Below are positions 5,581 to 61,591 of a stretch of DNA of 64,000 nt, piece after piece. Numbering within the stretch: the stretch's first letter is position 1; each line of letters begins with the position of its first letter. The stretch is from an uncultured Lachnospiraceae bacterium (lineage in GTDB: Bacteria; Bacillota; Clostridia; UBA1381). Location of the stretch: positions 2,588 through 66,587 of the forward strand of contig CAYNRX010000006.1 of assembly GCA_964399965.1 (NCBI GenBank). The letters run 5' to 3'. Below the pieces are notes generated by a model. The model was not told the DNA's origin, searched no databases, and saw only the letters and a program-made list of their open reading frames with translations. The position numbers and the translations under genes were made by a program.

Positions 5581-6657
5581 ATGAGCAGAGTTTATAATTT
5601 TTCAGCAGGTCCGTCAATGCTTCCGCTGGAGGTGTTGGAAAAGGCTGCGTCGGAAATGACGGAGTACGGCACAAGCGGTATGAGCGTTATGGAAATGAGC
5701 CATCGCTCGAAGGATTTTGACGATATCATAAAAGGAGCTGAAGCTCTGGTAAGAGAGCTTATGAACGTGCCGGATAATTATAAAGTGCTGTTTTTGCAGG
5801 GCGGCGGTTCGTCGCAGTTTGCAATGGTGCCGATGAACCTGGGCAATAAGAACAAAAAGTGCGATATCGTGATCACCGGCCAGTGGGCGAAAAAAGCGGC
5901 GGCCGAGGCTAAGAGATATATCAGTGTAAACGAGGTCGCAAGCTCCGCTGACAAGACCTTCAGCTATATACCCAAGCTCGACAAGAGCACGTTCTCCAAG
6001 GACGCGGATTATTTCTATATATGCTACAACAATACGATATACGGTACTCGCTGGACTAAGCTGCCCGAAACGGACGTTCCGCTGGTGGCCGATATCTCCT
6101 CCTGCATCATGTCGGAGGTCATAGATGTGGAAAAGTTTGGCCTGTTGTTTGCGGGCGCGCAGAAGAACCTCGGCCCGGCCGGCGTTACGCTCGTTATCGT
6201 GCGTGAGGATCTTATTGGCAACGCAATGGATATAACGCCGACAATGTTTGACTACAAGATACATGCTGATAACGATTCGCTCTACAACACACCTCCCACA
6301 TACGGCATCTATATGCTCAAGCTCGTTATGGAGTGGGTAAAGGAGCAGGGAGGAGTGGCAGTGCTTCAGGCTTTGAACGAAAAGAAGGCAGCTATCCTCT
6401 ATGATTACCTTGATTCCTCGAAGATGTTCCGCGGCACGGTCGCTAAAGAGGATCGTTCTTTGATGAATGTTCCCTTTGTGACCGGTGACAAGGAGCTTGA
6501 CGCTAAGTTTATCGCTGAGGCGACAAAGGCAGGGTTTGTGAATCTCAAGGGTCACAGAACGGTAGGCGGCATGAGAGCAAGCATCTACAATGCAATGCCG
6601 ATAGAGGGCGTTGAGGCTCTGGTCGCCTTTATGAAGAAGTTTGAAGAGGAAAACTAA
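5581..6657 (+). CDS. serC: Phosphoserine aminotransferase
   Basis: A 358-aa ORF. The N-terminus YNFSAGPSMLP and the class-V aminotransferase pattern fit, and serA lies adjacent. Confidence 0.9.
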   Translation: MSRVYNFSAGPSMLPLEVLEKAASEMTEYGTSGMSVMEMSHRSKDFDDIIKGAEALVRELMNVPDNYKVLFLQGGGSSQFAMVPMNLGNKNKKCDIVITGQWAKKAAAEAKRYISVNEVASSADKTFSYIPKLDKSTFSKDADYFYICYNNTIYGTRWTKLPETDVPLVADISSCIMSEVIDVEKFGLLFAGAQKNLGPAGVTLVIVREDLIGNAMDITPTMFDYKIHADNDSLYNTPPTYGIYMLKLVMEWVKEQGGVAVLQALNEKKAAILYDYLDSSKMFRGTVAKEDRSLMNVPFVTGDKELDAKFIAEATKAGFVNLKGHRTVGGMRASIYNAMPIEGVEALVAFMKKFEEEN

Positions 6658-7839: not shown

Positions 7840-7854
7840 CGGCTTGTACATAGA

Positions 7855-7885
7855 TCAATTGCAAAAAAGGTTTTGTAATTGACTA
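7855..7885 (+). repeat. Solo hairpin copy of the MITE-like element's terminal arms. No target duplication is detectable.
   Basis: TCAATTGCAAAAAAGGTTTTGTAATTGACTA has the same ...AATTGACTA terminus as the long copies. The stem keeps one G-U pair on the + strand. It ends 25 nt before the tig ATG. Confidence 0.6.
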
Positions 7886-13891: not shown

Positions 13892-13902
13892 ACAGATACA
13901 AT

Positions 13903-14082
13903 TATTTCCTTATTCTGGGGAGCGCAAGGGTGAAACCCTCGAATTCCAATCAATTTTTGACGACATGCGCGTCAAAAATTGCGAAAATAAAAGTTTCAGC
14001 GGTCTTTAGACCGCCAATCAACGGAACTTTTATTTTCTTCCTTAGCCAGAAATCAATTGCGAAAAGGTTTCGCAATTGACTA
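13903..14082 (+). mobile_element. MITE-like element, copy A. It is 180 bp, lacks the 5' hairpin, and lies in the flavodoxin 3' UTR.
   Basis: Flanked by a perfect AGATACAAT repeat at 13894-13902 and 14083-14091. I count about 6 substitutions against copy C over about 173 shared nt. Confidence 0.8.
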
Positions 14083-14135
14083 AGATACAATGATCCATCC
14101 ATAAATGGGCTTTATTGGGCGAAATACATAAAGAG

Positions 14136-20712: not shown

Positions 20713-20739
20713 ATCCATACCTCCTCGTTATTTTCTATT

Positions 20740-20953
20740 TAGTCAATTGCGAAACTTTTTTCGCAATTGATTTCTGGCTAATGAAGAAAATAAAAGTTCC
20801 GTTGATTGGCGGTCTGCGACCGCTGAAACTTTTATTTTCGCAATTTTTGACGCGCATGTCGTCAAAAATTGATTGTAATTCGAGGGTTTCACCCTCGAGC
20901 TCCTCAGAATGAGGAAATAATTGTAAAACGCTGCCGCGTTTTGCAATTATCTG
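20740..20953 (-). mobile_element. MITE-like element, copy B. It is 214 bp and lies in the 5' leader of the FAH-family gene.
   Basis: Flanked by a perfect ATTTTCTATT repeat at 20730-20739 and 20954-20963. It has both terminal hairpins. Confidence 0.85.
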
Positions 20954-20960
20954 ATTTTCT

Positions 20961-20989
20961 ATTATATACCAATTTGGAATTTTTTGCAA
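20961..20989 (-). promoter_or_regulatory. SigA-type promoter of the FAH-family gene, directly abutting copy B
   Basis: On the minus strand: TTGCAA (20989-20984), a 17-nt spacer, then TATAAT (20966-20961). The -10 overlaps the right target duplication by 3 nt. Confidence 0.5.
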
Positions 20990-21043
20990 TTGGTTTTTAC
21001 GGTGTAATTTGTCAAAAAACCGCCGCAAGTTTATGTGACGAAT

Positions 21044-22237: not shown

Positions 22238-22408
22238 GGTAATTCCCTCCTACGCTTCCCTTATAAAGGGTTATTTTGTGCATAAAAAAACGGATGACGC
22301 AAAGTCAGCCGCATACGATACACTTCCGCCGACAGGGGCGGAAAGACCATATTTACCACATTGTCTTTCAAATGCGGTGAGAGCGATGTGACTCTGCTTG
22401 TTTTCGTT
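22238..22408 (-). promoter_or_regulatory. infC-rpmI-rplT leader, probably an L20-responsive attenuator
   Basis: A leader of about 170 nt lies between the promoter and the SD. It contains a terminator-like hairpin plus T7 at 22284-22311. The operon context matches the Firmicute L20 leader. Confidence 0.45.
22284..22311 (-). terminator. Leader (attenuator) terminator upstream of infC
   Basis: On the minus strand: CGGCTGAC / GTCATCCG stem (one mismatch) followed by T7. Confidence 0.5.
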
Positions 22409-23880: not shown

Positions 23881-24147
23881 CTATCAAAGGCTGTGAAAAA
23901 GACAGTAGCGACCGAGGACGCCGTACAAGAGAGAGAGCATCGCGGCTGGAAGTGCTCTTTGCGGTATCGGGCGTGAACACCACTTTGGAGCCGCCGGCTG
24001 AAAGGGAGACCGATTAAGCTGCGCCGCTGCGCCCGGCGTTATGGGATAATGAAGCAATAAATCGGGGTGGAACCGCGCGTTCACTAAGAATAGTTCTGCG
24101 CCCCCGGAGAAGATCAGAGTGTTTTCTCCGGGGGCGTATTTTATTTT
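23881..24147 (+). promoter_or_regulatory. T-box leader (threonine specifier)
   Basis: T-box motif AATCGGGGTGGAACCGCG at 24060-24077. Candidate specifier ACC followed by A at 23979-23982. Terminator CCCCCGGAGAA / TTCTCCGGGGG plus a T-run at 24101-24147. Confidence 0.85.
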
Positions 24148-24189
24148 CTCACGGTGGGAATACGGAATGTTTAAAAAGTGTAATATAAT

Positions 24190-24470
24190 TTTAAATAATT
24201 GTAAAACGTGATAGCGTTTTACAATTATTTCCTTGTTCTGAGGAGCTCGAGGGTGAAACCCTCGAATTTCAATCAATTTTTGACGACTATGCACCGCGCA
24301 AGATGGCGCGGCCGGCAGCTTGCTGCCGGTTTTTGCGGAGCAAAAATGCTGAAAATGCGTCAAAAATTGCGAAAATAAAAGTTTCAGCGGTCTTTAGACC
24401 GCCAATCAACGGAACTTTTATTTTCTTCCTTAGCCAGAAACCAATTGCGAAAAGGTTTCGCAATTGACTA
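24190..24470 (+). mobile_element. MITE-like element, copy C. It is 281 bp, the longest copy, and lies between the T-box terminator and the thrS SD.
   Basis: Flanked by a perfect TAATATAAT repeat at 24181-24189 and 24471-24479. It has both terminal hairpins and a 72-nt expanded loop where copies A and B have 7 nt. Confidence 0.85.
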
Positions 24471-24501
24471 TAATATAATATCAGGAAAGAGGTTATCAAA
24501 A

Positions 24502-61471: not shown

Positions 61472-61499
61472 TATTTTTCACCTCGCATAATAATATATC

Positions 61500-61533
61500 G
61501 CTAGTCAATTGCGAAACCTTTTCACAATTATTT
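61500..61533 (-). mobile_element. MITE-like element, copy D. It is a 34-bp minimal copy made of just the two terminal arms.
   Basis: The minus strand reads AAATAATTGTGAAAAGGTTTCGCAATTGACTAGC. It is flanked by a perfect 10-bp repeat (plus strand ATAATATATC) at 61490-61499 and 61534-61543. Confidence 0.75.
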
Positions 61534-61535
61534 AT

Positions 61536-61565
61536 AATATATCACAATTAAGGGAACGCTGTCAA
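61536..61565 (-). promoter_or_regulatory. Candidate promoter of cbiK, with its -10 inside the duplicated target
   Basis: On the minus strand: TTGACA (61565-61560), an 18-nt spacer, then TATATT (61541-61536). Confidence 0.45.
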
Positions 61566-61591
61566 TAAATTTAAAACAGGACGGATTGTGG

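Follow-up and report, generated by a model that had tools for sequence, protein, structure and literature searches.

The thrS gene in the 64-kb window (the whole stretch of DNA that was analysed) is preceded on the plus strand by a T-box leader and terminator at 23884-24138, composed of an RF00230 match at 23884-24108 and a strong terminator at 24097-24138. The match (70.4 bits, E=2e-14) was obtained in an Rfam search by E-value and is under the gathering score of 93; the T-box escaped a scan at the gathering threshold. Located between the T-box terminator and the SD of thrS is copy C of a repeated element (24190-24470, plus strand), a long variant that enlarges the T-box-to-thrS gap by 281 bp and lies in sense orientation 33 nt upstream of thrS. 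Copy C is bounded by the direct repeat TAATATAAT, the left at 24181-24189 and the right at 24471-24479, and terminates in the perfect hairpin CCAATTGCGAAA-agg-TTTCGCAATTG (24441-24466, plus strand). With the T-box terminator on one side and the thrS ribosome-binding site on the other, C is in the transcribed leader of an essential gene.

Five other copies were identified, for a total of six in 64 kb. Copy A (13903-14082, plus strand, 180 bp) starts 12 nt past the stop codon of a flavodoxin gene and is flanked by AGATACAAT at 13894-13902 and 14083-14091, the duplication lying 2 nt past the stop codon. Copy B (20740-20953, minus strand, 214 bp), with the sequence CAGATAATTG...CAATTGACTA, is in the 5' UTR of a gene encoding an FAA hydrolase, in sense and 23 nt upstream of the gene, and its 10-bp duplication at 20730-20739 and 20954-20963 reads ATTTTCTATT on the plus strand and AATAGAAAAT on the minus strand. 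Hairpins equivalent to the terminal hairpin of C are present at 14053-14078 in A and at about 20744-20770 in B. Copy D (61500-61533, minus strand) is a 34-bp solo hairpin located in sense 32 nt upstream of cbiK and flanked by ATAATATATC at 61490-61499 and 61534-61543. Copy E (7851-7885, plus strand), the 35-bp solo hairpin TAGATCAATTGCAAAAAAGGTTTTGTAATTGACTA, is in sense about 25-27 nt upstream of the tig start codon and is without a recognisable duplication. Copy F (20969-20993, minus strand) is the decayed, solo-hairpin-like palindrome CCAATTGCAAAAAATTCCAAATTGG just upstream of B. The distances of B, C, D and E have as end points the start codon and the GAC in the terminal hairpin.

An earlier sequence-only reading of the window had reported copies A to D with perfect flanking repeats of 9-10 bp, all of which were recovered at the same positions; the mini copy E and the decayed mini copy F had been overlooked. 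It had also placed the three long copies correctly and described them as near-identical; as a correction, A is without the 5' hairpin. The position and flanking repeats given for the "mini copy" D were likewise correct, although D is a solo derivative of hybrid structure and not a member of an independent mini family. When the 28-nt 3' end was used as a gapless pattern, 3 matches with three or fewer mismatches were found in the window versus 0.00 expected; the 3' end of B escapes this pattern owing to one additional A in the loop. The core AATTGYRAAA, proposed earlier as the center of imperfect terminal inverted repeats, occurs 18 times in the window versus 0.9 expected. The true repeat, as seen in the main subfamily of the element, is TAGNCRATTGCRAAAG, which is both longer and more distinct.

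The earlier proposal that the element is non-coding was sustained: no ORF is conserved among copies, indels between copies break the frames, and the only ORFs found across elements are either short or lie over rplT in a different frame. Pfam searches and gene tables agreed that no transposase gene is present within the 64-kb window, also as proposed. Directly upstream of infC-rpmI-rplT, in the expected place, a weak match to the L20 leader (RF00558, 22 bits, E=0.41) was observed at 22276-22405 on the minus strand, which may be a divergent real leader.

A scan with the terminal hairpin of one genome per species yielded 44 loci in 22 assemblies, all of which are rumen or gut Oscillospiraceae/Ruminococcaceae MAGs; pattern matches per MAG reached a maximum of 13 in RUG12129, with 8 in CAMNKQ. 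A metagenome scan contributed 84 additional loci. After removal of chance matches, 126 hairpin loci remained, comprising 99 long main-type, 4 long window-type and 22 solo or other copies. Left out of the counts were L063, L065 and L129, in which the pattern matches fall within coding regions, and L068, L097 and L103, chance matches in three metagenome contigs of an AT-rich organism that is unrelated but has a very similar palindrome. The latter palindrome, CCAATTGTGAAAC-aaccc-GTTTCACAATTGAC (L103, 1074-1102, minus strand), has a conserved 50 nt ahead of it and lies ~80 nt past the end of a 317-aa ORF, with restriction-modification-like genes following. Copies range overall from 34 to 447 bp, far smaller than an insertion sequence, those of the main subfamily being about 190-205 bp and those of the window 34-281 bp; with few exceptions the long copies are complete. 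Sequence from the interior of the window copies was found in the same species and UBA1381 only, and a profile built from the main subfamily matched them at the termini only. Judged from these comparisons, the window copies are a lineage-specific subfamily having the termini alone in common with the remainder. The family is therefore defined by its ends, as expected for a shared transposase.

No copy matched Rfam at the gathering score and Rfam searches by E-value gave chance-level matches only on the element itself, in agreement with the earlier statement that the sequence is not a recognised RNA family. BLAST of plasmid records returned no match to the element, the terminal sequences did not occur in the literature searched, and a literature search on rumen MITEs returned microbiome surveys only. 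By its absence from Rfam, the plasmid records and the searched literature the family is new, although a MITE is itself a well-known kind of element.

The ends of the main subfamily are 16-bp inverted repeats, TAGNCRATTGCRAAAG ... CTTTCGCAATTGACTA, conserved in 38 aligned copies. The ends of the window subfamily, ATAATTGYAAAAC ... TTTCGCAATTGACTA, form an imperfect repeat matching at about 9/13 positions. Copies with a verified duplication have the canonical ends 5'-TAG(N)CRATTGCRAAAG and CTTTCGCAATTGACTA-3', that is, TAG...CTA. At the 3' end the repeat is present a second time, facing inward, which creates a perfect hairpin of 11-12 bp. Every copy terminates in such a hairpin, CAATTGCGAAA-loop-TTTCGCAATTG, and then ACTA. 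This hairpin is invariant among the 38 aligned relatives, and the TA that follows GAC in 68 of the 126 copies is a portion of the element's own end.

The solo hairpins, 34-36 bp in length, are perfect extragenic palindromes in which the stem is conserved and the loop varies by 3-7 nt. Copy D has the structure AAATAATTGT|GAAAAGGTTTCGCAATTGACTA, in which the 5' end runs directly into the inner hairpin arm of the 3' end (GAAAAGG...) with the duplication retained, and the same hybrid of 5' repeat and inner arm was found in L123 of the main subfamily. Further, the solo hairpin of L016 occupies the same site as a long copy in the orthologue L017. The two hybrids and the shared site indicate that solo hairpins are deletion products of long copies; loss of the DNA that separates the 5' repeat from the inner repeat copy would give solos of 34-36 bp that retain the duplication. 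A symmetric 36-bp solo copy with a 10-bp duplication was observed in L075. Although copy A is without the 5' hairpin its duplication is still perfect, and its left junction fits a secondary deletion that may have occurred between two ACAAT microhomologies, one in the duplication and the other closing the hairpin.

Perfect flanking repeats, all different in sequence, were found in 29 non-redundant copies inclusive of the four from the window, as had been anticipated for copies elsewhere. The length of 9-10 bp given previously is valid for A to D, whereas the family-wide range is 8-15 bp, mostly 10-13 bp. In L009 (~6105-6140) the left flank has two tandem copies of ttgatAATCGTTATCT and the duplicated target is thus present three times in all. 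In L175 and L178 the spacer between rplT and the FAA-hydrolase gene contains a single AATAGAAAAT and no element, with flanks ~99% identical to those of the window, in which the filled site consists of copy B (214 bp) with AATAGAAAAT on either side. Copy C is still present in a strain with the empty B site, and strain L181 also carries C with 2 SNPs. Since near-identical strains have the empty site with one repeat, B is a recent insertion. Reciprocal empty sites were also found between L007 and L018, which represent two other species, with a single ATAACACG at the empty site; the alignment of the L018 element with the empty L007 site was read by eye. Look-ups for A via neighbouring proteins gave no usable orthologous site, and some sequences ended inside the repeat. 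Both comparisons that were obtained agree with the earlier expectation of a single repeat at empty sites.

The element is mobile, and the duplications, the empty sites, the multiple copies and the non-coding sequence all bear out the earlier reading of it as a MITE. It is very probably a non-autonomous DNA transposon without any gene. A transposase encoded elsewhere would bind the ends and join them to target cuts staggered by about one helical turn, and repair of the gaps would produce the target duplications of the lengths found. Insertion in either orientation beside an SD would make the element part of the mRNA leader. The lengths of the repeats and the YA ends suggest that the transposase may be an IS4-family-like DDE enzyme. 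Counted against the MITE reading were the spread of duplication lengths, which exceeds that of most DDE elements, and the inconstant extremities of the copies, of which 0-3 nt differ at the 5' junction and 0-5 nt at the 3' junction.

Movement as single-stranded hairpin DNA by an HUH tyrosine transposase (RAYT or TnpA), in the manner of a REP/BIME-like element or an IS200/IS605-derived PATE, would be in accord with the palindromic solos and their conserved stems and variable loops, with the hairpins located at, or close to, each end of the window subfamily, and with a structure conserved with covariation as described below. Such families are without target duplications or terminal inverted repeats, however, whereas 29 copies of the present element have duplications of 8-15 bp and the empty sites have a single repeat. 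Neither a conserved tetranucleotide target nor a RAYT or TnpA gene was seen, and this mode of movement is considered highly improbable.

The duplications are 74% A+T versus 42% A+T for the loci in which they occur, consistent with the AT-rich targets reported for the window copies. An SD and start codon lie no more than 45 nt from the duplication in 26 of the 29 verified copies, usually at 10-22 nt, versus a background rate of 28% when the same test was applied to AT-rich intergenic 12-mers of these loci (P=6e-12). The insertions show a strong bias for a position beside the SD, in AT-rich DNA located 10-33 nt ahead of a start codon. A strong bias for the sense orientation, seen in the window (4/4 sense) and in a first survey (49/107 sense), is unsupported family-wide, the duplication-verified copies being 16 sense and 12 antisense relative to the adjacent gene. 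The target bias could partly reflect selection after insertion rather than site choice. Room further upstream was left unused at two sites, namely that of C, which follows the T-box terminator, and that of L007, which has its duplication 19 nt beyond the -10. The unused room suggests, but does not prove, site choice rather than selection alone.

Potential transcription signals were identified in and around several window copies. The extra segment of C contains a terminator-like hairpin, CGGCAGCTTGCTG then CCGGTTTTTG, at 24313-24325 (plus strand), and at the 3' end (24445-24474, plus strand) a promoter-like TTGCGA-18-TATAAT is built from the element end and the duplication. The putative terminator and promoter-like site together could uncouple thrS from its T-box. 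Copy F contributes the -35 of the FAA-hydrolase promoter TTGCAA-17-TATAAT (20989-20961), and F was also found in the strains with the empty B site. The native cbiK promoter, TTGACA-18-TG-n-TATATT (61534-61580, minus strand), is upstream of D, and the duplication of D (GATATATTAT) covers its TG-extended -10. The cbiK transcript therefore probably begins at the extreme 5' edge of the solo hairpin, in which case the mRNA would bear a 5'-terminal stem-loop. The element as a supplier of outward promoters fits C and F, but the spacer of the main subfamily is 19 nt and the -10 mostly poor, and this role is not general. Likewise, duplications serving as -10 boxes fit D and B but not C, which the T-box terminator precedes, or L007, given the 19 nt between its -10 and its duplication. 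Insertions in these positions may affect expression of the downstream genes.

The same features bear on a non-mobile interpretation, in which the repeat is a cis-regulatory leader or operator common to a regulon and the palindrome is the site of a transcription factor. B, C, D and E are all in sense 23-33 nt upstream of start codons, the palindrome is similar to dimeric operator sites, and the two promoter-like sequences overlap C and F. This interpretation is scarcely credible in view of the presence/absence polymorphism with exact duplications and a spacer between the arms that varies by 3-7 nt, which is unfit for a double-stranded operator. In addition, 12 of the 29 verified copies are antisense to the adjacent gene, and the downstream genes thrS, tig, cbiK and that encoding the FAA hydrolase are functionally unrelated.

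The interior of the element was investigated with an alignment of 38 main-subfamily copies. The consensus fold has 41 pairs in six helices with 98.5% of the cells paired, and compensatory double changes occur in 17 pairs versus 7.1±1.5 for shuffles and 1-8 for slid partners. Longer variants (343-447 bp) have one hairpin swapped for a larger one and the additional 67 nt of C are placed in the loop of a helix, stem expansions being tolerated in loops only. The internal secondary structure is a real constraint beyond the transposase-binding ends. Since a plain cut-and-paste element does not need covariation, an additional constraint exists at the level of RNA or single-stranded DNA. Evidence on the strand of the fold points both ways. 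In the sense strand G-U outnumbers A-C (22 versus 5 cells, in 9 versus 5 pairs), favoring sense, whereas by folding energy the antisense RNA is the more stable in 37 of the 38 copies.

A conserved, covarying fold is also what would be expected of a SINE-like retroelement, in which a reverse transcriptase recognises the constant 3' hairpin of a structured transcript and initiates target-primed reverse transcription into nicked AT-rich DNA. The variable length of the duplications (8-15 bp), the constant 3' end combined with 0-3 additional nt at 5' junctions, the perfect duplication of A despite absence of the 5' part, and the excess of G-U over A-C in the sense strand are in accord with this mechanism. 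On the other hand, a retroelement does not need the clear 16-bp terminal inverted repeat including TAG/CTA. Few of the long copies are incomplete, a 3' tail is absent, and no reverse transcriptase was seen nearby. The truncation of A is explained by deletion between the ACAAT microhomologies, and the greater stability of the antisense RNA renders the strand evidence ambiguous. A retroelement is thus quite improbable.

The fold is accommodated in another way if the element is a mobile structured leader module that homes to positions just upstream of SDs, with the fold acting on host mRNA or in a strand-specific transposition step; this is unlikely, although deserving of some consideration. The fold would be selected for action in cis on the mRNA it has joined (stability, processing or translation) or, alternatively, would be required for a strand-specific step of transposition using RNA or single-stranded DNA. 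If the former is true, the family would represent a shared post-transcriptional handle spread over unrelated genes, for example thrS, tig and cbiK.

For the MITE reading, a partner encoding the transposase was sought. The window, ~170 fetched loci, viral contigs and plasmids yielded no autonomous partner with matching ends, a point against the reading. Searches for distant terminal-repeat pairs and for repeats common to the loci, and a duplication-anchored search to 4 kb, revealed no transposase; scans of viral contigs with the hairpin and with the 5' end gave chance matches only, and BLAST against plasmids for a partner transposase gave nothing. Inspection of ORFs beside atypical matches produced as the sole find an ISL3-family transposase (L063, 895-2232, minus strand) that is unrelated to the family. 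It lies ~1 kb from the chance hairpin match, which is inside a YhcG nuclease gene.

Overall, the results indicate that the MITE family has a wide distribution among uncultured Oscillospiraceae of the rumen and has been active there at least recently. Nearly every insertion is in an mRNA leader by the ribosome-binding site, including those of the essential genes thrS and tig, and is so placed to alter expression. The insertions differ between near-identical strains and are therefore usable as strain markers. Public contigs of the same species end in or at the edge of copies, namely L001 and L182 (C), L176 (B) and L185 (A). The family thus helps to explain fragmentation of MAGs, since short-read assemblies break at the copies.

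Comparison with known systems places the family apart from each. The solos are similar to REPs in that they are extragenic palindromes of 34-36 bp with a conserved stem sequence. The REP and PATE systems have HUH transposases, no duplications and no terminal inverted repeats, and the present element differs in all three points; it also fails to show the insertion next to a fixed tetra- or pentanucleotide without duplication that is characteristic of REP/BIME-RAYT and IS200/IS605 PATE elements. Correia elements (CREE/NEMIS) of Neisseria are small multicopy MITEs near gene starts that are co-transcribed, form RNA hairpins and sometimes supply promoters; no cognate transposase is known in the host. 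The present element is likewise a small multicopy MITE near gene starts, and the outer bases of the repeats are presumably alike (TAGTGGATT versus TAGTCGATT). There is no sequence homology past these few bases, however, and the host phylum is different. Correia elements duplicate TA only, as do the other IS630/Tc1-mariner-type MITEs such as RUP, in contrast to the 8-15 bp duplicated here. The bcr1 or group-A repeats of the Bacillus cereus group are MITE-like elements of a Firmicute, ~150-200 bp in length, with target duplications and a predicted RNA fold conserved by compensatory changes. They differ in that a short specific target of the TTTAT type is duplicated and in having unrelated ends and sequence, and we know of no report of SD-adjacent targeting by bcr1.

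Non-autonomous derivatives exist in the IS4 family, for example the MIC231 cassettes of IS231 in the Bacillus cereus group; the transposase of the family is of the DDE type and has a YREK motif. The present element resembles the IS4 family in a variable duplication of about one helical turn (mode 10-13 bp), in short terminal inverted repeats with the 5'-NA second base, and in marked target preferences. Duplications in the IS4 family are 7-13 bp by subgroup and variable within one element, the ends are 5'-NA, and the end signatures of the subgroups are CAT, CA, -AATR and CT (PMC2266710, Table 1). The ends here, TAG or CAG (TAGNCRATTGCRAAAG), match none of the subgroup signatures and fit the general 5'-NA rule alone, and the duplications of 14-15 bp exceed the range of the table, that of 15 bp being a single case. 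The element was not assigned to the IS4 family since the end signature fits no subgroup and no transposase was found. A perfect terminal hairpin and an SD-adjacent target are not described for IS4. So tight a target is unusual and could, via the transposase, reveal a new mode of target selection. It is this target, together with the perfect terminal hairpin and its solo derivatives and the covarying core, that sets the family beyond the routine.
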